Below, piece by piece: positions 1,561-47,936 of a stretch of DNA of 64,000 nt. The DNA is from a bacterium (GTDB lineage Bacteria > Electryoneota > RPQS01), in NCBI GenBank assembly GCA_016702305.1, contig JADJEH010000001.1, forward strand, positions 312,077 to 376,076, written 5' to 3'. Position 1 is the first letter of the stretch. Every line of letters begins with the position of its first letter. A program made the translations under genes and the position numbers. The notes under the pieces are model-generated. The model had not been told where the DNA came from. It saw nothing but the letters and a program-made list of their open reading frames with translations, and made no database searches.

Positions 1561-1562
1561 TC

Positions 1563-30038: not shown

Positions 30039-30158
30039 CAATAGCTCAAACTGGGTCAGTCCCGAATGGCGATCGGACACTGCCCAGCCTCACTCGACGG
30101 GTTCGGAAGAGCTGCGGCTTCCACCCCAACTGCGACACCCTCTAACACGGATGAATGC

Positions 30159-32099
30159 ATGACGCGTGGACGCTTAGCTCTGCTGGCTGTATTGGCCGCA
30201 CTTTACCTGTTGATGGGCTGCTCCGCCAGCCGACAACTCTCCAGCCAATCCGGTCGCACTGAATTCCAAGAGCGAATCAGCCAGCCTGACCAGCTTACGG
30301 ACCGCGAACAGTGGAGCCTCGCCCGCAAAGCCTACGCGTACGCCCAGCGCGCCGAGCAACGCGGTCAGACCGAAGACGCCGCCTTCTACTACGAAACATC
30401 GCTTGAATTGCTCGGTGATTTGGATCTGGCTTCAATTGACGTCGAAATGCACCGCGTCGCCAGTTTCAACCGCCGCGTCCTCGATAGCTACGACCTGTTC
30501 GTTTCCAACACGAAATCTCTGCCCGCATCGTCGGGGCTGACCGCCGTCATTGAAGCCGGCGAGGTCCAGCACGACGGAGAAGACGAAGAGGACGACGCGC
30601 CCGACGAGATTGAAGTCGTCGCACCCGCGCCGGTCGAGCAGCCGTTTGCCGAGACCGAAGTCGTGTCCGTCAAACCGATGCTGCCGCCCGTTCCGATGGA
30701 AATCAACAGCAAGGTCCGCAACCAGATACACTTCTTCCAGACCAAGGGCAATAAGGTCATGAACCGCTGGATGGAGCGCGCCGCTGTGGTCTTCCCGCGG
30801 ATGCGCCCAATCCTGCGCGAAGAAGGTATCCCGCAGGAGATGCTCTATCTTTCGATGATCGAGTCCGGCCTCAATATGCAGGCCTACTCATATGCACACG
30901 CCTCCGGCCTCTGGCAGTTCATTCCCGGCACCGCGCGCAACTACGGCTTGCATGTGGATCGTGCCTATGACGAACGCCGTCATGTTGAAATGGCCACCCG
31001 CGCCGCCTGTGCCTACTTGCGCACGCTTTACGAAATGTTCGGCGACTGGTATTTGGCCATGGCCGCCTACAATTGCGGCGAAGGCCGAATTGCCAAAGAG
31101 ATCAAGCGCTGCAAGACCACCGACTATTGGGAAATGCACCGCCTGCCGCGCCAGACCAAGGGCTATGTCCCAACCTATCTGGCTGCCCGAACCATCTGCG
31201 AAAATCCGACTCGCTACGGCTTCCCGCCCTTGCCGCCGGAACGTCCTTTCGAATGCGAGCGCATCTTTGTGCCGGGCGGATACAAGATTGACGATATTGC
31301 CCGGGCGGCCGGACATGATCCGCAGGCCGTGCGGGAGCTGAATCCTGAGTTCTTGAAAGGCGTCATCCCCGACCGCGGTCAAGAGATGCTGGTCCGCCTG
31401 CCGGGATCCGCGTCCGAGTCGTTCTCAGAAGAACTCGCCAACCTGCCGAAGACGGTGATCGCGCCGACCAGCGTGCACCGCGTCCGCAAGGGCGATACCC
31501 TGAACAAGATCGCCAGCAAGTACGGCACGAGCGTCAATGCGATTCTCGGCATGCCTGAAAACAAGCGCGTCAAGGCGCGTTCGTTGCGCGTCGGTCAGGA
31601 AATAGTTATTCCGGTCACCGAAGTCCGCTACGCTGAACAGGCGCCGGCGAAGACCGTCAAAGAAACCGCCGCTGAACGGAGTGCTGAGTCCGCCGCCGTC
31701 TCCGAGACGGTCACCGACCGCATCACCTACACGGTCCACCGCGGCGAATCGCTCGGCAGCATTTCCGGCCGCTTGGGTGTGTCGGTAGATCAGATCTGCC
31801 GTGAAAACGGCATCAGCAATCCCAACAAGATCCAGCCTGGCCAAAAGCTCACCGTCACCGTCAAGGGTGAGCAGCAGGTCATGCAAGTGGCTCAGGCCGC
31901 CAAGAGCAAGTCGAAATCAAAAATCGCCTCCACCGGCACTTCCGATGCCGCCAAGAAGTACTACACCGTGCAGCGCGGCGACACCGCCTGGAGCATCGCC
32001 CAGCGCCACGGCCTCGATCTTGACACCATGCTCAAGCTCAATCGTCTGTCGCGCCGCGCCAATATCTACCCCGGTCAGCGCTTAGTCGTTAGTAAGTAG
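30159..32099 (+). CDS. mltD: membrane-bound lytic murein transglycosylase, MltD-like (SLT domain + 3 LysM), lipoprotein
   Basis: The lipobox signal is MTRGRLALLAVLAALYLLMG|C. The SLT catalytic block is ...LYLSMIESGLNMQAYSYAHASGLWQFIPGTAR.... Three C-terminal LysM repeats are present (YxV.(R/K)GD(T/S)L..IA..). Confidence 0.8.
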   Translation: MTRGRLALLAVLAALYLLMGCSASRQLSSQSGRTEFQERISQPDQLTDREQWSLARKAYAYAQRAEQRGQTEDAAFYYETSLELLGDLDLASIDVEMHRVASFNRRVLDSYDLFVSNTKSLPASSGLTAVIEAGEVQHDGEDEEDDAPDEIEVVAPAPVEQPFAETEVVSVKPMLPPVPMEINSKVRNQIHFFQTKGNKVMNRWMERAAVVFPRMRPILREEGIPQEMLYLSMIESGLNMQAYSYAHASGLWQFIPGTARNYGLHVDRAYDERRHVEMATRAACAYLRTLYEMFGDWYLAMAAYNCGEGRIAKEIKRCKTTDYWEMHRLPRQTKGYVPTYLAARTICENPTRYGFPPLPPERPFECERIFVPGGYKIDDIARAAGHDPQAVRELNPEFLKGVIPDRGQEMLVRLPGSASESFSEELANLPKTVIAPTSVHRVRKGDTLNKIASKYGTSVNAILGMPENKRVKARSLRVGQEIVIPVTEVRYAEQAPAKTVKETAAERSAESAAVSETVTDRITYTVHRGESLGSISGRLGVSVDQICRENGISNPNKIQPGQKLTVTVKGEQQVMQVAQAAKSKSKSKIASTGTSDAAKKYYTVQRGDTAWSIAQRHGLDLDTMLKLNRLSRRANIYPGQRLVVSK

Positions 32100-32189
32100 T
32101 TTCGAGCAACACCGTCGCGCTCGCGGCGGCAGGTGTTTGCGTCTGACCCTATAGTTCCCGTATTGTTCACTTCATGATGGAGACTTGCT

Positions 32190-32480
32190 GTGGGTCGCAC
32201 GGTGACCAAACAGGAGCTTGTTGACAAACTCGCCGAAGGCATCGGCCTCACCCGCATCGAAACACAAGCCGTCGTTGACGGCTTTTTGGCCCTTGTTATG
32301 GAGGCCGTCTCCACCGGCGATCGCGTCGAATTGCGCCGCTTTGGAGTATGGAAACCTGTGCATCGCAAAGGCCGTCAAGTGCGCACGCCTGATGGTTTGC
32401 ACGAAGTCCAAATCCCCGACCGCACCGCCGCCGTGTTCGTTCCCGCCGACGAGTTCCGCGACCGCATGCTCAAAGACTGA
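32190..32480 (+). CDS. HU/IHF-family nucleoid DNA-binding protein
   Basis: GTG start. ...TKQELVDKLAEGIGLTRIETQAVVDGFLALVMEAV..GDRVELRRFGVW... ends in an RTPDG-type beta-arm, as in the HU/IHF fold. Confidence 0.85.
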   Translation: MGRTVTKQELVDKLAEGIGLTRIETQAVVDGFLALVMEAVSTGDRVELRRFGVWKPVHRKGRQVRTPDGLHEVQIPDRTAAVFVPADEFRDRMLKD

Positions 32481-32578
32481 GCCGCGTTCGTACTGTCCAC
32501 GCCGCGTTTTTTTCCTGTTACTGTTAATACATCATTCACCCCGCCAAGGCCTGCGCCGAGGCAGAAACGGAGACACCC

Positions 32579-32674
32579 TTGCCCTGTGGTAAGAAGCGCA
32601 AGCGCCATAAAATGGCCACGCACAAGCGCAAAAAAAGACTGCGCAAGAATCGCCATAAAAAGAAACTGCGCTAA
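32579..32674 (+). CDS. rpsV: 30S ribosomal protein bS22 (RpsV-like) micro-ORF, 31 aa, TTG start
   Basis: The translation (M)PCGKKRKRHKMATHKRKKRLRKNRHKKKLR* was read by hand. It is not in the ORF track because it is under 60 aa. It closely resembles the Lys/Arg/His-rich bS22 peptides of Bacteroidota and Actinobacteria (...GKKRKRHK.ATHKRKKR.R.NRHKKK). An ATG at 32612 would give a 20-aa version. Confidence 0.6.
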   Translation: MPCGKKRKRHKMATHKRKKRLRKNRHKKKLR

Positions 32675-32748
32675 GGGTCACGCGCGTTCGCGCGTGACTC
32701 CCACCGCCGGATCATCACGGGTGCGGGCCTTCTTCGTGAGGCCCCGCC

Positions 32749-34020
32749 GTGTTTGTAGGATTACCCCTCACCGTGAATTCCGACCCCGCAGCCAAGCCTA
32801 ATGCCGATGCCCAAAGCCTGACGGTCTCCGCACTCACGCGTGAGATCAAACGGCTCTTGCGCGAACGCTTCGAGCCGCTGTGGGTCGAAGGCGAACTGTC
32901 CGGGTACAAGCCGCACTCCAGCGGCCACCACTACTTTACGCTGAAAGACGCGACCGCACAACTGTCCTGCGCCATGTGGCGCATGTACGGAAAAGGGCTG
33001 CGCTTTACGCCGCGAGACGGTCTGCTCGTGCAGGCCTTCGGACAACTCGAGGTCTACGAACCGCAAGGCAAGTATCAGCTCATCGTCTATGAGCTCAGAC
33101 TGTCCGGCGAGGGGGAACTCCAGCGCGCCTTTGAAGAGCTGAAACGACGGCTCGAACAGGAAGGTCTGTTCGACAGCGCCCGTAAACGCCCGCTGCCGGC
33201 CTATCCCCACCGGATTGGCCTGGTGACCTCGCCCACCGGCGCGGCCCTGCGCGACATGCAGACCGTGGCGGCGCGGCGATGGCCGCTCACCGAACTCGTG
33301 CTGAAACCTGCGCGCGTACAGGGCAAAGGCGCTGCCGAAGAAATTGCTCAGGCCATCCGCGAGTTCTCCAATTCCGGCGACGTGGACATAGTTGTCGTCG
33401 GTCGCGGCGGCGGATCGCTCGAAGACCTCTGGTGCTTCAACGAAGAAGTCGTCGCGCGCGCCATCTTCGAAAGCAAAGTTCCCGTCGTCTCCGCAGTTGG
33501 ACACGAAATAGACTTCACGATCGCTGACTTTGTCGCCGATCTGCGCGCGCCAACGCCGTCCGCTGCCATGGAGATTATTCTCCCCGACGGAGCGGACATT
33601 CGGCGGCAACTGGTGCAGCTCGAACGCCGCCTGTCACGCATGACCGTGGATCGCGTGTCGCTGCTGAAACATCAACTGCACGCCCTGACCGCGCATTGGG
33701 CCTTGCGGCAACCGCTGCAATGGGCGCAGGCCGCCGCACAGCGCGTGGATGATTTGCATGATCGCTTGCACGAAGCGGCCCTCGCCGCACAATCCGCTGC
33801 CGCCGACGAGCACGCGCGGTTGCACGATCTCCTGACCGCCGTTTCACCACGGCGCGTCCTGCAGCGCGGCTTCGCTATCGTCCGCGACAGCGACGGAGTT
33901 GCGCTGCGCTCCGCCGCGCACACCCGGCCCGGTGAACTGCTCACGATTGAACTCGCCGCAGGCGAACTCAAGGCCCGCGTCCAGAACTCCGCCATCCCCG
34001 ATCTCTTCGATGACCGCTAA
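32749..34020 (+). CDS. xseA: exodeoxyribonuclease VII large subunit
   Basis: An N-terminal OB-fold is present (LTVSALTREIKRLLRERFEPLWVEGELSGYK...SGHHYFTLKD). The catalytic core is ...RGGGSLEDLW.FNEE.VARA.... The start is GTG at 32749. Confidence 0.9.
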   Translation: MFVGLPLTVNSDPAAKPNADAQSLTVSALTREIKRLLRERFEPLWVEGELSGYKPHSSGHHYFTLKDATAQLSCAMWRMYGKGLRFTPRDGLLVQAFGQLEVYEPQGKYQLIVYELRLSGEGELQRAFEELKRRLEQEGLFDSARKRPLPAYPHRIGLVTSPTGAALRDMQTVAARRWPLTELVLKPARVQGKGAAEEIAQAIREFSNSGDVDIVVVGRGGGSLEDLWCFNEEVVARAIFESKVPVVSAVGHEIDFTIADFVADLRAPTPSAAMEIILPDGADIRRQLVQLERRLSRMTVDRVSLLKHQLHALTAHWALRQPLQWAQAAAQRVDDLHDRLHEAALAAQSAAADEHARLHDLLTAVSPRRVLQRGFAIVRDSDGVALRSAAHTRPGELLTIELAAGELKARVQNSAIPDLFDDR

Positions 34021-34264
34021 ACCCAAAGCCACCAAAGCCGAATTCGTTGATCCCAAGAGCTTCGAAGAGGCTCTCGAACGTTTGCAGGAGCTCGTGGAAA
34101 AGCTCGAAGCCGGTGAAATCTCGCTGGAAGAATCCGTGCAGGCCTTCGAAGAAGGACAAAAGCTCTCCGTCTATTGCCAGCACAAGCTCAAAGCCGCCGA
34201 GGCGTCGTTGAAAAAACTGTTGGATCAGTCGGCCGCCGCTGATCCCCTTACGGAAGAAGAGTAG
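34010..34264 (+). CDS. xseB: exodeoxyribonuclease VII small subunit
   Basis: MTAKPKATKAEFVDPKSFEEALERLQELVEKLEAGEISLEESVQAFEEGQKLSVYCQHKL is a typical XseB helical hairpin. The gene overlaps the xseA stop by 11 nt. Confidence 0.8.
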   Translation: MTAKPKATKAEFVDPKSFEEALERLQELVEKLEAGEISLEESVQAFEEGQKLSVYCQHKLKAAEASLKKLLDQSAAADPLTEEE

Positions 34265-34276
34265 GGGAGACGCGCC

Positions 34277-35140
34277 GTGCTGCTCGGGATCATGGGTAAC
34301 CCCACCAAACCGCGCTTCGCCAAAGAGGTAGCGGCCTTTGCCGCGCTGTTGCGCGCACGCAGCGTGCCGTTTGTCTACGATGCTGAGAACCTGCCCGTCG
34401 TCCCGCTGTCGGCGCAGGAAGTCGTCGCCCATGATCGCATTGGCGAGCAGGCCGATCTCATACTTAGCTTCGGAGGGGACGGCACACTCTTACGCACTGC
34501 CGCAGCCGTGGCACCGCACGGCAAACCGATTCTCGGCGTCAATCTTGGCCCCGGCCTTGGCTACCTCACCGACGTAACGCCGTCCGAACTCAAAACAATG
34601 CTCGACCGCGTGCTTGCCGCGGACTACCGCGTCGAGGAACGCATGATGATTCAGGCCTCCGTCTCTGGAAACGATCGAGTCTTCCATGCCCTCAACGACT
34701 TCGTCGTCGGACAACCGGAAGTTTCCCGCACCAGCGCGTTTGATCTGTTCATTGATTCACTCCCGGCGTCAACCTATCGAGCCGACGGACTCATCATCGC
34801 GTCGCCTACTGGCTCGACCGCGTATTCGCTGTCCGCAGGCGGACCGATTCTCGAACCGACGCTGCAGGCCCTGATTATCACGCCCATCTGCCCGCACACT
34901 CTCAGCATGCGTCCGCTCGCCGTGTCCAGCAAACGGAGCATCGCGGTCCGTGCGCAAGGGCCGGCAGTTCTGACCGCCGATGGTGAGATGATTTGTTCGC
35001 TATCCGCCGAGCAGGAAGTCACCGTGCGCAAAGCCGACCTCGCCGCATTGCTGGTCAATATGCACCGCCGCGACTTCTATCACGTCCTGCGCGACAAACT
35101 CCGCTGGGGAGCGGCACCCGGCGGCTCGCAAAACCTCTAA
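34277..35140 (+). CDS. nadK: NAD(+) kinase
   Basis: GGDGT appears in SFGGDGTLLRTA. The NE/D short motif and ...DGLIIASPTGSTAYSLSAGGPI... match NadK/PpnK. Confidence 0.9.
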   Translation: MLLGIMGNPTKPRFAKEVAAFAALLRARSVPFVYDAENLPVVPLSAQEVVAHDRIGEQADLILSFGGDGTLLRTAAAVAPHGKPILGVNLGPGLGYLTDVTPSELKTMLDRVLAADYRVEERMMIQASVSGNDRVFHALNDFVVGQPEVSRTSAFDLFIDSLPASTYRADGLIIASPTGSTAYSLSAGGPILEPTLQALIITPICPHTLSMRPLAVSSKRSIAVRAQGPAVLTADGEMICSLSAEQEVTVRKADLAALLVNMHRRDFYHVLRDKLRWGAAPGGSQNL

Positions 35141-35146
35141 GGCCTC

Positions 35147-36070
35147 ATGGGACTTTTCGATAAACTCAAGAAAGCGCTAACCAAGACTCGCGAAGCCATC
35201 ACCGAAAAGTTGGCCGCCGTCTTTCGCCCGGGCCGCAAGCTCGATCGGGCGCTCTTGCAGGAGCTCGAAGATATCCTGCTCTCGGCCGATGTCGGCCTCG
35301 AAACCACCGAGTATCTCATTGAACGCTTGCAAGCGGCAGGACGCGCAGCCGGGCCGGAGGCTGATGCCGACGCGCTACTGCGGCAAGAGATCGTCGCTCT
35401 GCTGAAAGAGGCCGAAGGGACGCCGCCTGTGCCCGGTGATCCGCACGTCATATTGATCGTCGGAGTGAATGGCACCGGCAAAACCACCAGCGTGGGTAAA
35501 CTTGGGAAATACCTTGCATCACAAGGTCAATCCGTGATGTTTGTGGCAGCCGATACGTTCCGCGCAGCGGCCATTGATCAATTGAAGATCTGGGGCGAGC
35601 GCAGCAACATCCCCGTTGTCGCGGGAGAACCCAACGGCGACAGCGCCGCCGTAGCGGTGGATGCGTTGCAAGCAGCCCGCAGCCGCGGTATCCAGCGCCT
35701 CGTCGTGGACACCGCCGGTCGCCTGCATAACAAGAGCAATCTTATGCAGGAACTGGAGAAAGTCTCGCGCGTGCTAAATAAGCGACTGCCCGGCGCGCCC
35801 CACGAGGTACTCCTCGTTCTGGATGCCACGACCGGACAAAATGGCCTGAATCAGGCCAAGGAATTCACCAAGACCGCCGGAGTGACGGGGCTGATCCTCA
35901 CGAAGATTGACGGCACCGCCAAAGGCGGTGTCGCCTTAGCCATCGCCCGTACGATGAAACTGCCGATCTGTTACGTGGGCTTTGGTGAGTCCCTCGACGA
36001 CTTTGAAGCGTTTAGTGCCGAAAAATTTGCCGAAAGCCTGCTCGGCGAACGCTCCGAAGCCACTGCATGA
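35147..36070 (+). CDS. ftsY: signal recognition particle receptor FtsY (NG-domain-only short form)
   Basis: An N-domain helical bundle is followed by the G-domain. G1 is GVNGTGKTT. DTAGR and TKIDGTAKGG are present. Confidence 0.9.
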   Translation: MGLFDKLKKALTKTREAITEKLAAVFRPGRKLDRALLQELEDILLSADVGLETTEYLIERLQAAGRAAGPEADADALLRQEIVALLKEAEGTPPVPGDPHVILIVGVNGTGKTTSVGKLGKYLASQGQSVMFVAADTFRAAAIDQLKIWGERSNIPVVAGEPNGDSAAVAVDALQAARSRGIQRLVVDTAGRLHNKSNLMQELEKVSRVLNKRLPGAPHEVLLVLDATTGQNGLNQAKEFTKTAGVTGLILTKIDGTAKGGVALAIARTMKLPICYVGFGESLDDFEAFSAEKFAESLLGERSEATA

Positions 36071-36540
36071 CCGCGCCGCTGCACATGCCCCTGCGAGTGG
36101 TCATTCTGCGCTCGCAATATCACGAGACGATCACGGCCAATCTGCTCGATGGCGCAGTCAGTGAATTGCGCGCGCATGGCCTGGACGATTCGCAGTTCGA
36201 GATCGTAACCGTCCCGGGTGCGTTCGAATTGGCCACCGCCGCAGCCCGCGTCGTGAAGCGCTTGAACGTGGACGCCGTTATTGCGTTGGGCTGTGTTGTC
36301 CGCGGTGAAACACCACACTTCGATTTCATTTGTCAGGCCTGCGCCAACGGCTTGTCGCGCGTCGGCGAATCCTCAGGAAAGCCCGTTACCTTCGGCGTTA
36401 TCACGGCCAACACCGTTGAACAGGCGTTTGAACGCGCCGGCGGGCGAGTTGGCAACAAAGGTCAGGAAGCCGCTCGTGCGGCACTTGAACTCGTGTCTGC
36501 CTTGAAACTATGGGAGCAGCAGCAAGTCACAGGCTCTTAA
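36067..36540 (+). CDS. ribH: 6,7-dimethyl-8-ribityllumazine synthase
   Basis: ...VTVPGAFELA..., ...DAVIALGCVVRGETPHFDFI... and ...FGVITANTVEQAFERAG... form the RibH consensus. Confidence 0.9.
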   Translation: MTAPLHMPLRVVILRSQYHETITANLLDGAVSELRAHGLDDSQFEIVTVPGAFELATAAARVVKRLNVDAVIALGCVVRGETPHFDFICQACANGLSRVGESSGKPVTFGVITANTVEQAFERAGGRVGNKGQEAARAALELVSALKLWEQQQVTGS

Positions 36541-36572
36541 CCCTTTTCTTCGGTCAATTGTGAGGGCATAAC

Positions 36573-38948
36573 ATGCCGCTGCTCGTCGCGCTTTGTGCGC
36601 TGACTATCGCAACTATCGCTTCTGCCAACCCGTTCCGTTGGACGACCTACACATCCGCGTCCAGCGTCCGCAATCTGCTCGTGACCGACGCCGGACTCTG
36701 GCTCGGCACCACTGGTGGCCTCGTCTCATTTGACCGGGCGACCGGCGAGTTTGATGTCTACACCAACACCCGTGGACTGGCAATGAACGCTACCGTGGGG
36801 CTGGGCGAAGATCAACAGGGTTGGATCTGGATCGTCGCGCCCGATGGCCGTATCACGCGACTCAATCCGCGGACCGGTCAAACGAAGGTCATCTCGGACC
36901 TGCAAAACGAGATCTTTGAAGTCTCCTCGATCGTGCGGGTCGGGGAGGAAATGTTTTTGGGGGCCAACAACGGAATCTACCGTTTCGCCTACTACGGCGT
37001 CGTAGATAACTACCGTGTTCTGGAGCGCGTCCGCGTGCTCGGGAGTTTCCCGACCAGCATTGCCGTTGCCGATCTCGTTGCCCACGACGGCTTTCTCTAT
37101 GCCGCCACCATCGCAGGACTCGCCCGGGCGCCCCTGACCAGTGCGCAGTTCTCCGCGCCCGCCGTCTGGGAAAACTACACGCTCACCGAAGGACTCCCGG
37201 CCAATAACGTTGAGGCGCTCGGTCTCGACGGGCAACGGCTCTGGCTGGCCACCGAGTCTCAAACCGCGTCCTTTGACGGCACTAATTTCAGTACGCCGAT
37301 TAGCGCACCTGAGGCTGTGCTCGAATTTGTCGGTTTTGATGGACAGTTCTACGCCATTAGCGAGAACACGCTCTATCGTTTCGCTGGTAATGCCTGGACC
37401 TCCACGGGACTCGGTCAACCGGGCCTGGCGGCGGTCGCCGTCACCGCCCTCGACGGCGTAAACATCCTCGCCATCGGTGTTGCAGATCGCAGCGAACGGC
37501 CCGGCGGACTGCGCTTCTTTGACGGGGCCGATCTGTCACCGATCATCGCGCCGCGCGGTGTGGGGGGCAACGCGGTCACCGCGCTGACGTTTGACTCCAT
37601 CGGTGATCTCTGGGTTGCCAGCCAAGGTGCTCGTACCGGCGTCTCCAAATTCTCGCACGAGCAATGGACTGCCTACACCCGCAGCGATACGCTTGGCGGG
37701 CTCTTCTGGAATTCCGGTCCGCGCTCCGCCGTTGCCGATAACTACGGCGGTGTCTGGTTCGGCAGCGATGGCGGCGGCGTTATTCGCCATCACAATGGCG
37801 AGTTCTATCGCTACAATTCCATCGAGGACGCAGGTTTTGATCAGGATGGCCCGCGGCTCTCCGGGATATCGGGCTCACCATCCTTCTGCGTCACACGGGT
37901 CGGCAAGCTCCCCTCCGGGGACATTCTCATCTCGAATCGTCTGGCCACCGTTCCACGTACTGTAGCCGTTGTCACCAATGATTGGCTCAGCCAGGGCAAC
38001 AATCCCACGCCGTGGGCCTACTACCGCACGCAGAGCGAGTCCGGAATCGCCCGCCCATACGAAATCAACGAGATCTTCGGTGATCCCTTTGGCCGCATCT
38101 TCGTCGGAGCGAGCTTCGACGGAAACCACACCTTCGTCTGCGATCCGGCCGGAACGCTGGCCGATACATCTAATGACCAATGGGCCAGCTACGATCCCGT
38201 CGAGTTGCAAGACGCCGCCACGACGTGCTTCGAGGACATCAACCGCGAGGTGCTGTCCTTCGCCGTGGACAAACAGAAATACCTCTGGGTCGGCACACCC
38301 GGCGGCGCGTACTATTCGCAAGGTGGCTTGACTCACAGCGGTAATCCGCAGGATAGTCTGCCCGATGACATCGCGAACTTGCGCTTCATCTGTCTGTTTG
38401 ATCTGCCCATCGGTCGCCGCGTTAATCACATTCATGTGGACGCGCAGGACAACAAGTGGTTTGCAACCGATGAAGGCGTGGCCGTGCTCGATCCGAGCTT
38501 CTCCTGGGTTCACGTGTTCCAAACATCGAGCAGCATTGACTTCGCGTCGGACCTCGCGTCAGAAAATGTAACTTCGATAACATCTAATCCCAGCACCGGC
38601 GAAGTTTGGATCGGCACGCTTGATGGTCTGTCACGACTCGAAACTCCCTACGTTACGCGCGAACGTACGCTCGACGAAGTCTGGCCCTATCCCAATCCGT
38701 TCATCGCTGACGGTACACAGCACATGTATCTCGATGCGAACGCGCTGGGGGGCCGTTTTGATGAATTGCGCGTCTTTACACTCACGGGCCGACTGGTCCG
38801 CGAATTAGCGTGGAGCACTGCCATCAGCACGGGCTGGGACGGCCGCAATGAAGATGGCGAGCTCGTCGCCGGCGGCGTCTATCTGCTGGTCGCCACCACT
38901 TCTGATGGCCACTCCGCCACCGGTAAACTTGCCGTGCTGGGCCGGTAG
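36573..38948 (+). CDS. secreted beta-propeller (two-component-regulator-propeller-like repeats) protein with T9SS C-terminal sorting domain
   Basis: A signal peptide is present. Repeats of the type GLWLGTTGGLVSFD / GDLWVASQGA / GVWFGSDGGGV resemble Reg_prop. The C-terminal roughly 90 aa ...VWPYPNPF...ELRVFTLTGRLVREL...WDGRNEDGELVAGGVYLLVATTSDGHSATGKLAVL has the hallmarks of the Por secretion (T9SS type A) CTD. Confidence 0.7.
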   Translation: MPLLVALCALTIATIASANPFRWTTYTSASSVRNLLVTDAGLWLGTTGGLVSFDRATGEFDVYTNTRGLAMNATVGLGEDQQGWIWIVAPDGRITRLNPRTGQTKVISDLQNEIFEVSSIVRVGEEMFLGANNGIYRFAYYGVVDNYRVLERVRVLGSFPTSIAVADLVAHDGFLYAATIAGLARAPLTSAQFSAPAVWENYTLTEGLPANNVEALGLDGQRLWLATESQTASFDGTNFSTPISAPEAVLEFVGFDGQFYAISENTLYRFAGNAWTSTGLGQPGLAAVAVTALDGVNILAIGVADRSERPGGLRFFDGADLSPIIAPRGVGGNAVTALTFDSIGDLWVASQGARTGVSKFSHEQWTAYTRSDTLGGLFWNSGPRSAVADNYGGVWFGSDGGGVIRHHNGEFYRYNSIEDAGFDQDGPRLSGISGSPSFCVTRVGKLPSGDILISNRLATVPRTVAVVTNDWLSQGNNPTPWAYYRTQSESGIARPYEINEIFGDPFGRIFVGASFDGNHTFVCDPAGTLADTSNDQWASYDPVELQDAATTCFEDINREVLSFAVDKQKYLWVGTPGGAYYSQGGLTHSGNPQDSLPDDIANLRFICLFDLPIGRRVNHIHVDAQDNKWFATDEGVAVLDPSFSWVHVFQTSSSIDFASDLASENVTSITSNPSTGEVWIGTLDGLSRLETPYVTRERTLDEVWPYPNPFIADGTQHMYLDANALGGRFDELRVFTLTGRLVRELAWSTAISTGWDGRNEDGELVAGGVYLLVATTSDGHSATGKLAVLGR

Positions 38949-38951
38949 CCA

Positions 38952-40652
38952 ATGCTCGCGCGCCTGAGCATTCGCGACTTCCTGCTGGTCAAAGAGATCA
39001 CTCTCGACTTATTGCCCGGCTTCACCGCCATCACCGGTGAAACAGGCGCGGGTAAAAGCATGATCCTCGGCGCGCTGCGCGTCCTGTTTGGCGACTCCCT
39101 GAGCGAGAGCATGATCCGCGAAACTGCCGACCGCGTGATCATCGAAGCGGAATTTCAACTCGCATCGCCCGAGGCCGTTCGGGCCCTGCTCGGCGAAGAT
39201 GCTGACGACGAACCCACGACGATTCTTGCCGTGCGCCGCGAATTGACCCGCGGTGGCCGGGCGCGCGGCTACATTCAGGACCGCCCCGCAACCGTAGAGC
39301 TGCTCAAATCCGTGGGCGAACAGCTCATGGACTTCCACGGTCAACGCGACAGCCTTTCGCTCTTTCGTGCCGCGCGTCAGCTTGAATTCCTCGATGCCTT
39401 CGCGGGCAACGCTGAACTCTGCGATCGCGTTGCCGCCGACTTTCGCCGCCGCGCTGATCTGCATAGACACCGCGATGAACTGCTGCGTGTCGTCACGGAG
39501 CGCCGCAAGGAACAGGCATTGCTGGCCTATCAATTGGAAGAAATCGAACGGCTTGGCCTGCACGCCGGTGAAGATGTTGACATCACCGCGCGCCTGAAAC
39601 GTCTTGAGCAATCCGAGAAGCTCATTACTCTCGCCACGCAAATGGCGGGCATTTTGGAACAGGACGACGTTTGTGCCGTTGCGCTGACCGGACAAGCGCG
39701 GCAGCTCGCCGACGAAATCAAACGTTACGACGATCAGTTTCAACCGATCGCATCCGAACTCGCGGAGCTCGCCGCCCGGTTGCGTGATGTGAGCGCTGAA
39801 GTCAGCCGCTACGCCGAACACGTCGAAGTGGACACCGCCGAACTCGAATTGCTGCGGCAACGCGCCGCCACGATCTCGGAACTGCGCCGCAAACACGGCC
39901 TTGACCTGCAACAGATTCTCGAACGCGCGCAAAACATGAAATCCGAGCTGGCGGAATTGGCACGCCTCGAACAGCAGCTCGCGCTGCTTGACCGCGACCT
40001 CGATTCCGCCGCCAAAGCTCTGCACGAGTCCGCGCACTTGCTTACCGCCGCGCGCAAATCCGCCGCACCCAAATTCGGCAAGGCCGTCGCGCAGGCGCTT
40101 GAGCCGCTGGGATTTGCCAAGCCGCGCTTCGAAATCAAACTCGACGCCGCCGACCCCGCCGACCCTGCGCATATCTCCCGCAGCGGCGCGGATTCCGTGG
40201 ACTTTCTGTTCGCGGCATCCGCTGGCCAGAAACTCGCGCCGCTGACTGACGTCGCCTCCGGCGGTGAATCGTCCCGCGTCACGCTCGCCATCAAGAGTGT
40301 CGTCGCCGAACGCATGCACTACCCGCTGCTCGTCTACGATGAAATTGATCTCGGCATTTCCGGCCGCGTTGCCGCGGCGGTCGCCAATTTGCTCGACAGC
40401 TTGGGTCGCGCGCAACAGCTTATGGTTGTCACGCACCTGCCCCAGATCGCGGCCCGCGCAAACCACCACCTTGAAGTTTCCAAAAGCACCTCCGGCAAGC
40501 AAACGCTCACCAGCGCGCGCCTGCTCAAACCCGATGAACGCGCGGCCGCCGTCGCCGCGCTGCTCGCCGGGACCGAAATCTCCGGCAGCGCACTGGCCGC
40601 CGCCGGCGAACTCCTCAACTCCCACAAATCCCCGACTGAACTGGCAGACTAA
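38952..40652 (+). CDS. recN: DNA repair protein RecN
   Basis: The SMC-like Walker A is ITGETGAGKSM. A long coiled coil follows. The C-terminal signature and Walker B read ...GGESSRVTLAIKSV...LLVYDEIDLGISG.... Confidence 0.9.
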   Translation: MLARLSIRDFLLVKEITLDLLPGFTAITGETGAGKSMILGALRVLFGDSLSESMIRETADRVIIEAEFQLASPEAVRALLGEDADDEPTTILAVRRELTRGGRARGYIQDRPATVELLKSVGEQLMDFHGQRDSLSLFRAARQLEFLDAFAGNAELCDRVAADFRRRADLHRHRDELLRVVTERRKEQALLAYQLEEIERLGLHAGEDVDITARLKRLEQSEKLITLATQMAGILEQDDVCAVALTGQARQLADEIKRYDDQFQPIASELAELAARLRDVSAEVSRYAEHVEVDTAELELLRQRAATISELRRKHGLDLQQILERAQNMKSELAELARLEQQLALLDRDLDSAAKALHESAHLLTAARKSAAPKFGKAVAQALEPLGFAKPRFEIKLDAADPADPAHISRSGADSVDFLFAASAGQKLAPLTDVASGGESSRVTLAIKSVVAERMHYPLLVYDEIDLGISGRVAAAVANLLDSLGRAQQLMVVTHLPQIAARANHHLEVSKSTSGKQTLTSARLLKPDERAAAVAALLAGTEISGSALAAAGELLNSHKSPTELAD

Positions 40653-40654
40653 CT

Positions 40655-41917
40655 TTGGATAGCTTACTTCTCCGCGGCGGACGACCGCTCGAAGGAGAGA
40701 TACCTGTTTCCGGATCGAAAAACGCCACGCTGCCGCTATTGGCCGCCGCGCTCCTCGCTCCCGGCTTCTATCGCTTCACTAACGTCCCGCGCCTTATGGA
40801 CGTACGCACGATGTGCAACTTGCTCCGTATTCTCGGCGCGAAAGTAGATGAACACGAGCACGAACTGCTCATTGACACGTCGCACGCTTCGCATATTGAA
40901 GCACCCTATGAATTGGTCAAAACCATGCGCGCCAGCTTCTATGTGCTCGGTGCGCTGCTTGGACGTCACGGCGAGGCTCGCGTCTCGCTGCCCGGCGGCT
41001 GCGCATGGGGACCGCGTCCTGTAGACTTGCACATGAAAGGGATGGAAGCGCTCGGCGCCAAACTGGAGCTCGACCAAGGCTACGTCGTCGCCAAAGCTTT
41101 GCCCTTGCGCGGGGCTACTTTCGAGTTCGGCATCTCCAGCGTCGGTGCTTCGGCCAATGTCCTGATGGCAGCCGTCCGTGCTGAAGGGACCACCGTCCTG
41201 AAAAACGTCGCGCTCGAACCCGAAGTGACGCAGCTTGCGATCTTCCTCAATCGCATGGGCGCGCGCATCGCCGGTATCGGCTCGCGCGAACTCACCATAC
41301 AAGGCGTCGCCGAGCTTCATCCCGCCGATGCGGAAATGCTGCCGGATCGCATTGAAACCGGCTCGTACATCTGCGCCGTCGGCATGACAGGTGGCAAAAT
41401 CAAAATCTCGCGGACTGATCCGGCGCAGTTGACCATCGTTCTCGAAACTGCCCGCCAGGCCGGACTCACTGTGCAAACCGGCGCTGATTACATTTCGGTC
41501 GAGCGAACAAATGGTGCGTTGAAACCGGTGACCATTACCACCGACGCCTATCCCGGCTTCCCGACTGACTTGCAAGCGCCGTTCATGGCCATGGCCACGC
41601 TCGCCGCCGGAGAATCGCGCATCACCGATACGATCTACACCGATCGCTTCACCCACGTCGCCGAACTCGCGCGACTCGGCGCGAATATCCGCATGGATCA
41701 CAACGTCGCCGTGATCACCGGCGTGCCGAAACTCACCGGCGCGCCCGTCATGTCCACTGACCTCCGTGCGTCTGTCTGTTTGGTGCTGGCGGGCCTCGCC
41801 GCGCACGGCGAAACCGAAGTCAAACGCGTCTATCATCTCGACCGCGGCTACGAAAAACTCGAAGTAAAACTCGCGCGCGTCGGCGCCGATATCCGGAGGA
41901 TCGAAGGCGACCTATGA
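40655..41917 (+). CDS. murA: UDP-N-acetylglucosamine 1-carboxyvinyltransferase
   Basis: ...LRGGRPLEGEIPVSGSKNA.LP... is present. The catalytic Cys is in ...PGGCAWGPRPVDLH.... The product is 420 aa. Confidence 0.95.
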   Translation: MDSLLLRGGRPLEGEIPVSGSKNATLPLLAAALLAPGFYRFTNVPRLMDVRTMCNLLRILGAKVDEHEHELLIDTSHASHIEAPYELVKTMRASFYVLGALLGRHGEARVSLPGGCAWGPRPVDLHMKGMEALGAKLELDQGYVVAKALPLRGATFEFGISSVGASANVLMAAVRAEGTTVLKNVALEPEVTQLAIFLNRMGARIAGIGSRELTIQGVAELHPADAEMLPDRIETGSYICAVGMTGGKIKISRTDPAQLTIVLETARQAGLTVQTGADYISVERTNGALKPVTITTDAYPGFPTDLQAPFMAMATLAAGESRITDTIYTDRFTHVAELARLGANIRMDHNVAVITGVPKLTGAPVMSTDLRASVCLVLAGLAAHGETEVKRVYHLDRGYEKLEVKLARVGADIRRIEGDL

Positions 41918-44900
41918 GCGCCGATTTCGTTCATCTGCACAACCACTCGGAGTACAGCCTCCTCGACGGCGCCTGTAAGGTCGGCGACCTCGTGCGCCGT
42001 GCCGTCGAATTGCAGATGCCCGCAATCGCTCTCACCGATCACGGCGCTCTGCACGGCGTCGTGGATTTCTACTCAGCCTGTAAATCAAACGGTATTCAGC
42101 CCATCATCGGCTGCGAAACTTACATCTGCAAGGATCGCTTCAACAAATCCGGCGGTCAACGCAGCCGCGACGGCGAGTACGCCAGCCATCTCCTGCTGCT
42201 GGCCAAGAACGAAGCGGGCTACAAAAACCTCGTCAAACTCTCGTCGCGCGGCTATACCGAGGGCTTCTACTACCGGCCGCGCATTGACCACGGACTCCTG
42301 GCCGGCCACTGCGACGGACTGATCGCCACCAGCGGCTGCATGTCATCGGAAATTCCCACGCTGCTAATGTCCGGTGACGAAACCGGCGCATGGGAACGAG
42401 CGATGTGGTACAAAGAGCTCTTCGGCACGGACTTCTATGTCGAAATCCAGCGCCATGACCTGCCCGACGAACCGCAGCTCAATAAGCAGCTCCTCAAGCT
42501 CGCCAAACGGCTTGATGCGAAAGTCATCTGCACGAACGATACGCACTACCTCGAGCGCAGCCATCACGAAGCGCATGACTGTCTTCTGTGCATCGGAACC
42601 GGCAAGTTCGTGTCAGACGCCGAGCGCATGAAGTTCGATACGCAGGAGTTCTATCTCAAGACTCCCGCCGAAATGGCCGCGCTCTTCAGCGATGTGCCCG
42701 AGGCGCTGCTCAACACGCGCGAAGTCGCCGAAAAGTGCGCCATTGCTCTGGACTTCAACACCCGCCATCTCCCGCACTTCCCGCTGCCGGAGGGTGAGAC
42801 CACCGAAACAGAGTACCTCACGAATCTCGCGCGCGCCGGATTGACGCGGCGCTATCGCGAAGTTACTCCCGAATTGCTCGAACGCCTCGACTACGAGCTT
42901 CGCGTTATTGACCAGATGGGCTTCTCGGGCTACTTCCTCATTGTCTCTGACTTCGTGCGCTATGCGCGCTCGATCGACGTCGCGGTCGGACCGGGTCGCG
43001 GTTCCGCCGCCGGTTCGCTTGTCTGCTATGCACTCGGTATCACCAGCCTCGACCCGATGCGCTTCGGCCTTTACTTCGAGCGCTTCCTCAATCCCGAGCG
43101 CATCTCGATGCCCGATATTGATATTGACTTCCATGACGAAGGCCGCGCCCGCGTGATTGAATATGTGCGCGAAAAATATGGCGCTGAATCCGTCGCGCAG
43201 ATCATCACCTTCGGCCGCCTGAAAGCGCGTGCCGTCGTCCGTGATGTGGGCCGCGTCTTGAGCATGCCCTATGCCGACGTGGATAAGCTCGCCAAACGCA
43301 TTCCCGAGGGTCCAACCGCCAACCTAACGACGGCCACCGAGAACAATCCCGAGCTGACCACGATGCTCGCCGAGCGCGAAGATTACCGGCGCGTCTTCAA
43401 TGTCGGTGCCACGCTGGAAGGGCTTTGCCGTCATGCCTCCACGCATGCCGCCGGCGTCGTCATTACCCCCGGACCGCTCACCGATTACGTCCCGCTGTTC
43501 CGCCAATCCGACGGCAGTGTCACCACGCAGTTCGATATGAATATCGTGGACAAGATCGGCCTGCTTAAGATGGACTTCCTCGGATTGCGCACGCTCAACG
43601 TCATTGACCTGTGCACGCGCATGCTGGCCGACCGCGGCATAACCCTTGAACTCGATACGCTTCATGAATCCAACGACGACAAGACCTATGACCTGCTCGG
43701 TCGAGGTGACACTGTCGGCGTCTTCCAGCTTGAATCGGGCGGCATGCGCGAGTGGCTCACCAAGCTGAAGCCCAACTGCATTGACGATATTGTGGCTATG
43801 GTCGCGCTCTACCGCCCCGGGCCGATGAATATGATCGGCGACTTCATCGAGCGTAAGCATGGCCGCACGCCCGTCGCATACCTGCATCCGAAACTAAAAC
43901 CGATCCTCGACCAGACATACGGAGTCATCGTTTATCAGGAACAGGTTCTGCGGATCGCCCGCGATATCGCCGGGTTCACGTTGGGCCGCGCTGACATTCT
44001 GCGGAAAGCAATGGGCAAGAAGAAGAAGGAAGAGATGGAGAAGGTCCGCGCCGACTTCATCGCCGGTTGCCTGTCGCATAGCGGACTTTCGCAGAAACTT
44101 GCCGAAGAAATATACGAACTGGTGCGCAAATTCTCCGAGTACGGTTTCGTCAAGGCGCATGCCGCCTGCTACGCCGTCCTCGCCTATCAGACTGCCTATC
44201 TTAAGGCTAACTATCCCGCGGAATTCGTCGCATCCAATATCGCGTCGTATCATGGTGACACCAAGCGCATGCCGAAAGTCATCAGCGACGCGCGCAAGTG
44301 CGGAGTCTCCGTGCGGCCGCCGGATGTGAATCAATCGGTGGCCAACTTCTCCGTGTCCGGCGACGCCGTGCGCTGCGGGCTCGAGAATATCAAGAACATC
44401 GGCCACAGTCCCGTCGAGTCTATCTTGAATGCGCGCGCCAAGGGCGGACCGTTCACGAGCTTTTTTGACATGGCCGCCCGCGTGGACTCACGCGTCGTCA
44501 ATCGCAAAGTCATTGAGAGTCTGATTGGAGCGGGTGCGCTCGACTCGCTGCCCGGCAATCGCGGTCGCTTCTTCGCGTCAATCGAATCGTTCTTGTCTTA
44601 TTCCGCGGAAAAAGAACGTGAACGCGATTTCGGTCAATCGTCCCTGTTTGGTGGCGTTGCCTCCGCGACTTCGCTCGAACCACAGCTCCCCGAGGTGATG
44701 GATCAGTCCTTCGACGAGAAGATTGCCCGCGAAAAAGAGCTGCTCGGCTTCTATGCCACCGGTCATCCGCTCGACATGGAACGAGATGTCATCGCCTCGA
44801 TTACAACGGCCGCGTTGGGTGACACCGCCGAGCTCGCCGATCAGGACAGCGTGCGGCTGGGCGGAGTGGTTACGGACATTCGCCGTCAGGTCACGCGCAA

Positions 44901-45345
44901 AGGCAAGCCGATGGCCACCGTCATCTTCGAAGACTACACGGGTTCCGCCGAAATTCTCGTCTTCTCCGATGTGCTCGAAAACTACCTGCCGATTCTGCAG
45001 AAAGATGCGCGTCTGATCATCGTCGCGCGCGTCACTCGCCGCGAGGACGAGGAACCCAAGTTTATCGCTGAGGAAATTTACTCTATTGAGGAAGCCAAGG
45101 CGCGATTCATCAAGCGCCTGCTCCTGCACCTCGCGCCGCGCCCGGATCTGGAAACCACGCTGAATGCTTTGGAAGATCTCTTTGCTTCCCACAGCGGCGA
45201 CGTTGAGATTCTCTTCAAAGTCGAACAGAATGGGCAGAACCGCTTTATCCGCTCACGCCGTTATCGTTTGAAGACGTCGCTTGCCGTGATCAACCAGATG
45301 CGCAAAGTCATCGGCGAGCAGAACGTAGAGTGCCTATGGCAATGA
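41914..45345 (+). CDS. dnaE: DNA polymerase III alpha subunit
   Basis: An N-terminal PHP domain is present (FVHLHNHSEYSLLDGA). The pol-beta-like palm (GPGRGSAAGSLV.Y.LGIT..DP) and OB fold are present. The product is 1143 aa. Confidence 0.95.
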   Translation: MSADFVHLHNHSEYSLLDGACKVGDLVRRAVELQMPAIALTDHGALHGVVDFYSACKSNGIQPIIGCETYICKDRFNKSGGQRSRDGEYASHLLLLAKNEAGYKNLVKLSSRGYTEGFYYRPRIDHGLLAGHCDGLIATSGCMSSEIPTLLMSGDETGAWERAMWYKELFGTDFYVEIQRHDLPDEPQLNKQLLKLAKRLDAKVICTNDTHYLERSHHEAHDCLLCIGTGKFVSDAERMKFDTQEFYLKTPAEMAALFSDVPEALLNTREVAEKCAIALDFNTRHLPHFPLPEGETTETEYLTNLARAGLTRRYREVTPELLERLDYELRVIDQMGFSGYFLIVSDFVRYARSIDVAVGPGRGSAAGSLVCYALGITSLDPMRFGLYFERFLNPERISMPDIDIDFHDEGRARVIEYVREKYGAESVAQIITFGRLKARAVVRDVGRVLSMPYADVDKLAKRIPEGPTANLTTATENNPELTTMLAEREDYRRVFNVGATLEGLCRHASTHAAGVVITPGPLTDYVPLFRQSDGSVTTQFDMNIVDKIGLLKMDFLGLRTLNVIDLCTRMLADRGITLELDTLHESNDDKTYDLLGRGDTVGVFQLESGGMREWLTKLKPNCIDDIVAMVALYRPGPMNMIGDFIERKHGRTPVAYLHPKLKPILDQTYGVIVYQEQVLRIARDIAGFTLGRADILRKAMGKKKKEEMEKVRADFIAGCLSHSGLSQKLAEEIYELVRKFSEYGFVKAHAACYAVLAYQTAYLKANYPAEFVASNIASYHGDTKRMPKVISDARKCGVSVRPPDVNQSVANFSVSGDAVRCGLENIKNIGHSPVESILNARAKGGPFTSFFDMAARVDSRVVNRKVIESLIGAGALDSLPGNRGRFFASIESFLSYSAEKERERDFGQSSLFGGVASATSLEPQLPEVMDQSFDEKIAREKELLGFYATGHPLDMERDVIASITTAALGDTAELADQDSVRLGGVVTDIRRQVTRKGKPMATVIFEDYTGSAEILVFSDVLENYLPILQKDARLIIVARVTRREDEEPKFIAEEIYSIEEAKARFIKRLLLHLAPRPDLETTLNALEDLFASHSGDVEILFKVEQNGQNRFIRSRRYRLKTSLAVINQMRKVIGEQNVECLWQ

Positions 45346-46724: not shown

Positions 46725-47932
46725 CGCTGCTGACAGCGTTGGCCTTCGCCCAACGACCGCGCCACACGGATGGCCCGGAGGCCCGCGGCTTTCGCTGCTC
46801 CTCCGGTCAGCGCTTGTCGTCCGACCCTGATAGCGCCCTCGTTTTCGTCGCGCTTTCCGTCCCCTACGACAATTTGACCTTCGTCCGCGGACAATCGAGC
46901 GCGTTCATCGCCCGCTTCGAAGCGTCGTTCGCGCTCTTTGACGAAGCCGATAACCTCGTCGCCGAACGCAGCCTCGACATTGACGTCCACACCGATTCTT
47001 TTGAAGAAACCAACAGCCGCACGCTGAATGCCGTGCGCACCGAAGAGTTCTTCATCAAACCCGGCGAGTACGCCGTCTCCGTCACAATCACCGACCGCGA
47101 AACCAAGAGCAAGCGCCGCTGGCAGGGCGACGTCTCCGCCGCGCTGATGGACTCGCTGCTCTCCGTTTCCGACCTGTATTGGCTCGACGCCGACTCGCTG
47201 CATGACCAGCCGCTCGTGCCGCGCGTCCTTGAGAACTTCTCCAATCGGGACGAGCCCGCGCGCGTTGGCATTGATCTCGTCAGCGTCGCCCGGGACACCT
47301 TAACGATCACGTGGACCGTCACCGGCGAAAACAACCAGCCCGTTGCCACGCGCAGCGAACGCGTCTATCCCACGGGCACGGTCGAACATATCGAATACGA
47401 TGTCGTCCTGGCCAATCTGCCCGTGCAGAAATACAAAATCGCCTTCGAGGCTCTGGGCTTCGGCCGCCGCGAAGCGCGAACCATCACGTTTACAGTCAAT
47501 ATCCCCGGCGTCCCCGCGACGATAACGGATCTCGGCGAAGCCATTCGTCAAGTGAAGTACATCGCTACTGCCGAAGAAAACCGGCGCCTGCGCTCCGCTT
47601 CGATGGTGGACCGCGAACAGCTCTTTCGCGAATTCTGGAAACGCCGCGATCCGTCGCCAGAGACGCCGCGCAACGAACTCATGGAAGAGTACTACTTCCG
47701 CATTGACTACGCCGACGACAAGTACTCGACGCATCGCGCCGGCTGGGAAACCGATCGCGGCCGCGTCTTCATACTCTATGGCGAGCCCACCGACATCGAG
47801 CGGCATCCCTTTGAATCCGGTTCGCGACCCTACGAAATCTGGTTCTATCACAATTTGAATCGCCGCTTCGTGTTCGTGGACTACACCGGCTTCGGCGACT
47901 ATACGCTCGCCGGACCGCAGTGGGGGTATTGA
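46688..47932 (+). CDS. GWxTD-domain secreted protein
   Basis: A signal peptide MRKLSTACLVTLTLLTALAFAQ is present. The C-terminal ...HRAGWETDRGRVFILYGEPTDIER...YEIWFYHNLNRRFVFVDYTGFGDYTL carries the eponymous GWxTD motif (TIGR04514-like). Confidence 0.7.
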   Translation: MRKLSTACLVTLTLLTALAFAQRPRHTDGPEARGFRCSSGQRLSSDPDSALVFVALSVPYDNLTFVRGQSSAFIARFEASFALFDEADNLVAERSLDIDVHTDSFEETNSRTLNAVRTEEFFIKPGEYAVSVTITDRETKSKRRWQGDVSAALMDSLLSVSDLYWLDADSLHDQPLVPRVLENFSNRDEPARVGIDLVSVARDTLTITWTVTGENNQPVATRSERVYPTGTVEHIEYDVVLANLPVQKYKIAFEALGFGRREARTITFTVNIPGVPATITDLGEAIRQVKYIATAEENRRLRSASMVDREQLFREFWKRRDPSPETPRNELMEEYYFRIDYADDKYSTHRAGWETDRGRVFILYGEPTDIERHPFESGSRPYEIWFYHNLNRRFVFVDYTGFGDYTLAGPQWGY

Positions 47933-47936
47933 GTTC

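Follow-up and report, generated by a model that had tools for sequence, protein, structure and literature searches.

The window, a stretch of 64,000 nucleotides of bacterial DNA, carries on its forward strand (36573..38948) a gene that encodes a divergent ortholog of PorZ, a protein of the T9SS (type IX secretion system) machinery. The 791-residue protein fails the cutoffs of the two dedicated PorZ models, NF052228 and PF21544, but passes every test of homology, synteny, and fold. Together with PorU, PorV, and PorQ, PorZ makes up the surface attachment complex of this system; it possesses two beta-propellers and a C-terminal domain (CTD) that is not cleaved (PMC5121618, PMC12398890, PMC11285876). 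We consider it likely that the gene is the PorZ ortholog of an uncultured bacterium of the Fibrobacterota–Chlorobiota–Bacteroidota (FCB) type, the nearest labeled relatives being metagenome-assembled genomes (MAGs) labeled KSB1 or Calditrichaeota. An earlier reading of the same DNA, called here the initial annotation, took the protein to be poorly catalogued T9SS cargo of the surface or sensor kind. The link to T9SS that it drew is sound. The cargo role is not borne out: the protein is a full-length homolog, and a positional ortholog, of a component of the machinery.

Homology of the window protein to PorZ

The identity of the protein was examined along six independent lines: by graded homology, synteny, profile–structure comparison, profile–profile comparison, fold, and sequence-space neighborhood. 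The sole strong family match is the NCBIfam equivalog NF052228 (T9SS_PorZ), at an E value of 1.7e-43. The full name of this model is “type IX secretion system anionic LPS delivery protein PorZ” (LPS, lipopolysaccharide). Database searching yields a close clade whose members are full length (758-813 aa) and 42-77% identical to the query and, beyond it, more distant relatives that are likewise full length. Several of these connect the window protein to PorZ. Specifically, P0015, which shares 47% identity with the query, gives one unbroken alignment with the PorZ model (residues 7-785 vs positions 10-755 of 757), while P0030, 30% identical at 100% coverage, and P0035 score 289 and 440 bits, respectively, both above the NF052228 cutoff of 260 bits. 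PF21544, the model of the PorZ N-terminal beta-propeller, has a cutoff of 27 bits; P0030 (33.5 bits), P0031 (36.6 bits), and P0035 (74.7 bits) pass it, and P0015 (21.2 bits) remains below.

Gene order provides a second line of evidence. The window gene and the genes for P0015 and P0030 all lie between ribH and recN, with dnaE downstream. The order ribH-porZ-recN-dnaE is kept in a relative (locus L005) with only ~30-46% protein identity. These genes belong to a larger 13-gene block at 30066-48878 on the forward strand (mltD-like, HU, xseA, [xseB], nadK, ftsY, ribH, porZ-like, recN, murA, dnaE, miaB-like, GWxTD, ldcA), which is collinear in all clade loci that extend far enough (L007, L010-L019). 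Across the clade, the identities of the PorZ-like proteins (43-73%) track those of recN (42-70%). Together with the conserved block, this tracking fits vertical inheritance.

Profile methods extend the similarity over the entire protein. A profile built from 26 family members matches chain A of the PorZ crystal structure (5M11_A) at an E value of 9.6e-60 and 206 bits, in a single stretch that joins profile positions 23-772 to chain positions 13-744 and includes the CTD. In HHalign, the 22-member close clade was compared with canonical PorZ sequences (Porphyromonas gingivalis W83, Tannerella forsythia 92A2, and Winogradskyella, from the supplement of PMC7323717). The result is a probability of 99.9% and an E value of 5e-38 over 694 columns, positions 26-791 vs 22-770 of 771. 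Even a single-sequence BLASTP comparison of the window protein with T. forsythia PorZ yields one collinear alignment (5-789 vs 6-768; 21% identity, E 1e-14).

In sequence space, the sampled neighbors of the protein match only PorZ. An exhaustive HMMER scan of 1.84 billion cluster representatives returned 189 at E<=1e-30. Beyond the query’s clade, nearly all of them are 720-800 aa long and align over their full length, with 25-33% identity. We sampled 64 of the nearest representatives: at E<=1e-25, NF052228 is the sole family that any of them matches, and it matches them all; 38 reach E<=4e-78, or ~260 bits on a scale taken from the NF052228 scores of the query and of its relatives P0030 and P0035. 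Scanning a genome collection with a one-peptide pattern revealed ten PorZ orthologs in relatives and no cargo protein. The best long-contig match to the CTD, P0148, is a frameshifted PorZ fragment.

Side-by-side comparison with the characterized proteins summarizes how close, and how distant, the relationship is. PorZ of P. gingivalis (PG1604 / PGN_0509, “immunoreactive 84 kDa antigen PG93,” PDB 5M11) is 776 aa long vs 791 aa here. Like it and like T. forsythia PorZ (BFO_0945), the window protein has a signal peptide, followed by two propellers of the seven-bladed type that are placed alike relative to each other, and then a short linker and a CTD of seven strands. The homology is collinear throughout, beginning with the first residues of the mature protein and ending at the C-terminus. 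The glycine and lysine motifs of the P. gingivalis CTD are also present. However, identity to the P. gingivalis and T. forsythia proteins is only ~19-21%, with no PF21544 match and a sub-cutoff NF052228 score. Moreover, unlike the P. gingivalis gene, the window gene resides in a host that, judged by labels, is outside Bacteroidota, and it is fixed in the ribH-recN housekeeping block.

Predicted structure and the C-terminal domain

The AlphaFold2 (AF2) model of the window protein has a predicted local distance difference test score (pLDDT) of 88.6 and a predicted template modeling score (pTM) of 0.84. DSSP assigns ~27 strands to residues 32-316 and 27 to residues 334-690, plus an N-terminal strand at 22-26. 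These counts fit two seven-bladed propellers, with the N-terminal strand closing the second one as it does in PorZ. Propeller 1 spans residues ~28-322 (36654..37538), as delimited by DSSP, by superposition on 5M11, and by hidden Markov model (HMM) and HHalign alignment to the first PorZ propeller (bD1). Propeller 2 spans residues ~330-690 (37560..38642), as delimited by PF07494, DSSP, and structural and profile alignment to the second (bD2). The boundaries of both are approximate; both, like all features of the gene described below, are on the forward strand. The Pfam model PF07494 (Reg_prop) scores 57.4 bits against a cutoff of 20.4, and the best repeats are in propeller 2, for example at residues 557-576. 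The propeller-like body that the initial annotation had described is thus confirmed by both the repeat score and the modeled double propeller. In the model, the two seven-bladed propellers take up the near-perpendicular “easy-chair” arrangement and are followed by a C-terminal beta-sandwich, the combination that characterizes PorZ (PMC5121618). Foldseek against the PDB returns 5M11 as the best match (E 4.7e-32), with whole-chain template modeling (TM) scores of 0.75/0.79, and the CTD of the model superposes on the PorZ crystal structure along with the remainder of the protein.

Reg_prop propellers also occur in the hybrid two-component system (HTCS) sensors of Bacteroides, which raises the notion that the window protein is a detached periplasmic ligand-binding sensor module of such a system. 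Its Reg_prop repeats are compatible with that notion, and phmmer and Foldseek both match the sensors BT4663 (4A2L/4A2M), BT3049 (3V9F), and BT4673 (3OTT/3VA6), which likewise consist of two propellers followed by an Ig-like domain. The sensors, however, possess a Y_Y_Y domain, a membrane anchor, and a cytoplasmic kinase/regulator. The window protein has neither a Y_Y_Y domain (PF07495) nor a transmembrane segment, a kinase, or a receiver; it ends in a T9SS-type CTD, and nothing follows. Despite comparable domain content, the whole-chain TM score to the sensors is only ~0.32 vs 0.75-0.79 for PorZ, from which it follows that the inter-domain geometry, including that between the two propellers, differs. 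The family profile likewise ranks the sensor domains below 5M11, at 166 bits and in four fragments. Foldseek, the 5M11 superposition, and the family profile search effectively rule out a sensor module, and we regard it as extremely improbable.

At its N-terminus, the window protein begins with a predicted Sec signal peptide, residues 1-18 (MPLLVALCALTIATIASA; 36573..36626), a hydrophobic segment with a cleavage site predicted, by inspection, between ASA and NPF. Also by inspection, all 26 family members have a hydrophobic N-terminus with an AxA-type site, followed by the motif [NQ]PF[RQ]WTT[YF]TS. Residues 2-15 form a low-pLDDT helix in the AF2 model. Downstream of the predicted site lies the conserved strand NPFRWTTYT, residues 19-27 (36627..36653; model strand 22-26), in which W23 is invariant. 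In the family alignment, W23, T27, and S28 are invariant or near-invariant columns. In P. gingivalis PorZ, the N-terminal strand is G29-L34 and the linker preceding the CTD is G680-G691 (PMC5121618). By analogy, the strand in the window protein probably closes propeller 2, as G29-L34 does. The counterpart of the linker, residues 691-703 (38643..38681), has no regular secondary structure, and residues 691-700 have a mean pLDDT of 66. We note that many clade members would have Gln as the predicted mature N-terminal residue, which recalls the “Q-rule” of Bacteroidetes, a rule that, according to PMC5837995, is not general in the FCB group.

The CTD itself occupies residues 704-791 (38682..38945). 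In the AF2 model, it is a seven-strand beta-sandwich whose first strand is interrupted, as described for PorZ (PMC5121618). The two short motifs on which the initial annotation relied are in place: YPNPF at residues 706-710 (38688-38702) and the terminal KLAVLGR at residues 785-791 (38925-38945), within the open reading frame (ORF) that it had placed at 36573..38948. Mutagenesis in P. gingivalis established that CTD function requires a glycine at the start of beta4, in the L-beta3-beta4 motif, and a lysine in the middle of beta7, in the C-terminal (C-t) motif (PMC11285876). The corresponding residues by these motif definitions are G739 (38787-38789) and K785 (38925-38927). Both are invariant in 26 of 26 family members.

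Several results indicate that this C-terminus is a T9SS-type CTD, as the initial annotation had proposed. First, the isolated domain matches the CTD segment of the PorZ model best, at 34 bits, and that of the PorU model at 21.5 bits; these two proteins, PorZ and PorU, are the ones with uncleaved CTDs (PMC11285876). Second, a profile of nine clade CTDs, searched against 5.8 billion sequences, retrieves 454 proteins at E<=1. Many of them, at E values of 1e-9 to 1e-5, bear the name “T9SS type A sorting domain-containing protein” or “FlgD immunoglobulin-like domain containing protein” and contain PF18962, PF13860, or PF13585. Most of the recovered proteins are short metagenomic fragments. Third, an HMM rebuilt from 111 recovered CTDs scores the window C-terminus at 80 bits. 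The fold of the AF2 model agrees.

With the type-A sorting domains (TIGR04183/PF18962) and the related FlgD_ig-type domains, the CTD has in common a seven-strand Ig-like sandwich with a YPNPF-type first strand, the glycine that opens beta4, the beta7 lysine, a hydrophobic-basic C-terminus, and reciprocal profile matches. It differs from them in lying under the TIGR04183 cutoff, in missing PF18962, and in scoring better on the PorZ CTD segment. The best Pfam matches to the CTD, FlgD_ig at 19.5 bits and CHU_C at 13 bits, are both sub-threshold; FlgD_ig-type C-terminal domains are common in non-Bacteroidota FCB lineages. Also unlike a type-A domain, the CTD is more strongly conserved than the passenger: no other domain is as well conserved within the clade (60-86% identity vs 38-78% for the propellers). 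Judged from sequence conservation, this pattern would fit a CTD that is retained and binds a partner.

A proposed role in T9SS and its alternatives

A function for the protein can be proposed by extension of the work on P. gingivalis PorZ (PMC5121618, PMC8545088). In P. gingivalis, PorZ binds anionic lipopolysaccharide (A-LPS) and presents it to PorU (PMC8545088). By analogy, the window protein would be exported by Sec, cleaved near the junction of ASA and NPF, and folded in the periplasm. The T9SS translocon (Sov/SprA) would then recognize the CTD and move the protein to the cell surface with the CTD uncleaved. There, the retained CTD would dock on a PorQ-type outer-membrane barrel, and the propellers would bind an anchor glycolipid and pass it on to the sortase PorU, which in turn would swap the CTDs of cargo proteins for the lipid anchor. 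The P. gingivalis glycolipid is A-LPS with its phosphorylated branched mannan. The window PorZ would probably use a different, lineage-specific glycan, and A-LPS is an unlikely ligand for it. Protein identity and the conserved secretion motifs suggest a role in T9SS. So does a survey of Bacteroidetes in which PorZ, PorU, and PorQ, called T9SS modification components, are jointly absent from Sphingobacteriia (PMC7323717).

A number of observations weigh against this assignment. The NF052228 score of 149.1 bits is under the curated 260-bit equivalog cutoff, PF21544 is silent on the window protein at E<=1, and single-sequence phmmer against the PDB missed 5M11, with only HTCS sensors matching. 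The check with established sorting-domain models gave a borderline outcome. TIGR04183 has no match on the full-length protein at E<=1, and on the isolated last 96 aa it reaches 20.9 bits (E 2.5e-4), ~2 under the 23-bit cutoff; PF18962 is silent on the CTD even at E<=10. The ~84 kb of genome examined, about 2% of the whole, contains no further T9SS gene (porKLMN, sprA/sov, porU, porV, porQ) and, according to two custom CTD HMMs, no second CTD-bearing protein. Moreover, the S8 and M14 secreted peptidases encoded just upstream of the window are without a T9SS CTD. Finally, both the PorZ ligand and the PorU–PorZ interaction are species-specific (PMC8545088), and CTD retention, PorQ docking, glycolipid binding, and interaction with PorU are all carried over here from P. 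gingivalis.

One alternative is that the protein is ordinary T9SS cargo, that is, a surface propeller adhesin or sensor whose CTD is a tag cleaved by PorU and which has no part in the machinery. The type-A-like CTD and the position of the protein under the PorZ equivalog cutoff would suit such cargo, and the two ideas overlap, given that PorZ is itself a T9SS substrate. Yet cargo status leaves much unaccounted for. The similarity to PorZ spans the whole protein and extends to the way the two propellers are oriented, which is specific to PorZ; a positional ortholog scores above the PorZ cutoff; and 64 of 64 sampled nearest representatives match only PorZ. Additionally, a CTD more conserved than the body is unexpected for a disposable tag, and the gene is constant in the housekeeping block of every relative long enough to show it, whereas typical cargo is lineage-variable. 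We judge the cargo alternative very improbable.

A second alternative retains the PorZ ancestry and discards the secretion system: the protein would be a PorZ-derived, glycan-binding envelope protein that in this lineage has lost, or never had, a function with canonical T9SS, with the Ig-like (FlgD_ig-type) domain as a module for anchoring or interaction rather than as a T9SS signal. This idea draws on the lack of any other T9SS gene or CTD protein in the ~84 kb, on the silence of PF18962 with FlgD_ig as the best Pfam match on the CTD, and on the placement of the gene among housekeeping rather than T9SS genes. Likewise, the genome paper on Caldithrix abyssi reports no gliding machinery of the Bacteroidetes type, and the phrase “secretion system” is absent from it. 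On the other side of the balance, both experimentally required CTD motifs are invariant, and genuine type-A sorting domains of T9SS are among the matches of the CTD profile. The genes for T9SS usually lie dispersed over the genome, so their absence from ~2% of it says little, and PorZ, PorU, and PorQ, described as modification components, are reported to be jointly absent from Sphingobacteriia (PMC7323717). In our view, a role outside T9SS is improbable.

More distant PorZ homologs offer a view of the glycan side. In loci L006, L009, and L020, the PorZ homolog is directly flanked by glycosyltransferase genes, which the query locus does not have; such flanks fit a glycan-linked role for PorZ. 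L009:10001-19147 (Zixibacteria GCA_016235085.1) and L020:9516-16188 (ENA ERZ25039554 contig_49570, rich in frameshifts) share a conserved cluster: priA ... a thiL-like gene, lnt, the PorZ homolog, an acetyltransferase and three glycosyltransferases, and a C25 peptidase of ~800 aa. That peptidase carries a type-A CTD (TIGR04183, 29.3 bits), but its match to the PorU model reaches only 68 bits. None of the retrieved Zixibacteria-type C25 cargo peptidases is a true PorU, with a maximum of 93 bits vs a cutoff of 420. The cluster may represent a compact “attachment module” in which the sortase is non-canonical. L006:12342-17758 (JGI 3300063147) is a second case of PorZ adjoining glycan-synthesis genes: here P0035, above the PorZ cutoff, is followed directly by GT2/Bac_transf sugar-transferase genes.

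Arrangements such as these raise the idea that, in the present lineage and related ones outside Bacteroidota, the PorZ-like protein is part of a surface-attachment module that is reduced, or wired differently, relative to the canonical complex of the P. gingivalis type. The motivation is twofold. First, the Zixibacteria-type PorZ clusters with glycosyltransferases and a short C25 peptidase that is not a canonical PorU. Second, the PorZ of the query’s clade is locked in a housekeeping block for cell-envelope and replication functions and has a CTD more conserved than its propellers. Were porKLMN and sprA absent from the genome, the protein would represent a PorZ-type presenter of glycolipid that acts outside T9SS. 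We regard such a module as unlikely, and we continue to favor an orthodox PorZ in a T9SS attachment complex.

As a PorZ ortholog, the window gene implies that an uncultured wastewater/soil lineage possesses the sortase-type attachment branch of T9SS (PorU, PorQ, PorV) and not the translocon alone. That branch predicts surface proteins covalently anchored to a glycolipid, one that cannot be P. gingivalis A-LPS. Given that T9SS has already been described as specific to the FCB superphylum (PMC8754138, PMC12398890), PorZ here is an expected extension and comes as no surprise. The practical value lies in an annotation gap for the PorZ family. Because the clade is sub-threshold, as are about 40% of the nearest representatives sampled, the NCBIfam and Pfam models of PorZ evidently under-call the protein outside Bacteroidota. 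Our literature search found no paper that names PorZ together with KSB1, Zixibacteria, Calditrichota, or Gemmatimonadota, and in the Caldithrix genome paper we found no statement about T9SS.

The gene, its relatives, and its surroundings

The PorZ-family coding sequence (36573..38948, forward strand) comprises 791 codons plus the stop codon and starts with ATG, as supported by the ORF list, exact-sequence look-ups, and the homology to PorZ. An in-frame stop precedes it at 36561-36563, and a Shine-Dalgarno-like GAGGG, read from the sequence, lies at 36562..36566 on the same strand, 6 nt 5' of the ATG. The GC content at the three codon positions is 0.61/0.49/0.70, as in other real genes of the window, whose overall GC content is ~59%. 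The gap between the ribH stop and the gene is 32 bp, and that between the gene and recN is 3 bp. A scan of the ribH, PorZ-like, and recN junctions for consensus promoters and terminators came back empty, with site counts no higher than in shuffled sequence. From this arrangement, the gene is probably co-transcribed with its housekeeping neighbors.

In NCBI, the identical protein is deposited as MBK6909583.1 / MBK8128461.1, named “hypothetical protein IPK53_05770 [bacterium].” It is also encoded on CAWKXM010000006.1 (GCA_963853605.1; 3.37 Mb) and JADJQG010000006.1 (GCA_016712825.1), both MAG contigs. Several other window genes are 94-99%, not 100%, identical to their counterparts in L001/L002, and exact-sequence look-ups of the proteins encoded at 14203-16014 and 59128-61818 found no record. 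The window probably derives from a third assembly or strain, nearly identical to the recorded ones. The whole clade is deposited under either “hypothetical protein” or “ligand-binding sensor domain-containing protein,” the latter being the JGI label.

Relatives that share the gene block are labeled KSB1, Calditrichaeota, or “bacterium,” and the more distant PorZ homologs are on Zixibacteria and Bacteroidota-type contigs. The affiliation with the FCB group that the initial annotation suggested is plausible: the nearest labeled relatives are FCB-group MAGs (KSB1, Calditrichaeota, Zixibacteria), and the placement follows these labels rather than a phylogeny. Six of the loci (L010, L011, L013-L015, L019) come from binchicken third-party annotation (TPA) MAGs titled “uncultured Alphaproteobacteria bacterium.” Their gene content matches that of the KSB1- and “bacterium”-labeled relatives, and the “Alphaproteobacteria” label looks like a placeholder or an error.

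The initial annotation stated that no T9SS machinery gene is in the window. This statement holds for the genes that it listed: neither the window nor the 10 kb upstream contains porK, porL, porM, porN, sprA, porU, porV, or porQ, as the genes there received other Pfam or NCBIfam assignments or none. It fails for the gene under study, since PorZ is itself T9SS machinery. Two further markers had been cited in support of an FCB lineage. The GWxTD protein is confirmed by TIGR04514 at 123.8 bits, and we found nothing that links GWxTD to T9SS. As for the proposed bS22 gene, a crude scan of the window for small K/R-rich ORFs gave only arginine-rich antisense artifacts in coding regions.

Elsewhere in and around the window, a few additional features deserve mention. 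Immediately upstream, 0.1-9 kb from window position 1 (L004:1098-8210), two very large secreted peptidases are encoded in tandem. One belongs to family S8, is 1297 aa long, and contains CarboxypepD_reg repeats; the other, from family M14, has 1065 aa and includes a choice-of-anchor J domain. At 355-3456 on the forward strand lies a partner-switching module that consists of a helix-turn-helix (HTH) protein, two STAS proteins resembling anti-sigma antagonists, a GAF-SpoIIE (PP2C) phosphatase, and an anti-sigma-type HATPase_c_2 kinase. The only Rfam and ARAGORN matches in the window are tRNA-Leu(TAG) at 10864-10948 on the forward strand and tRNA-Lys(TTT) at 18135-18208 on the reverse strand, with no rRNA. 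Finally, the forward-strand gene at 14203-16017 encodes a protein of 604 aa that has a signal-peptide-like N-terminus and matches no Pfam or NCBIfam family.

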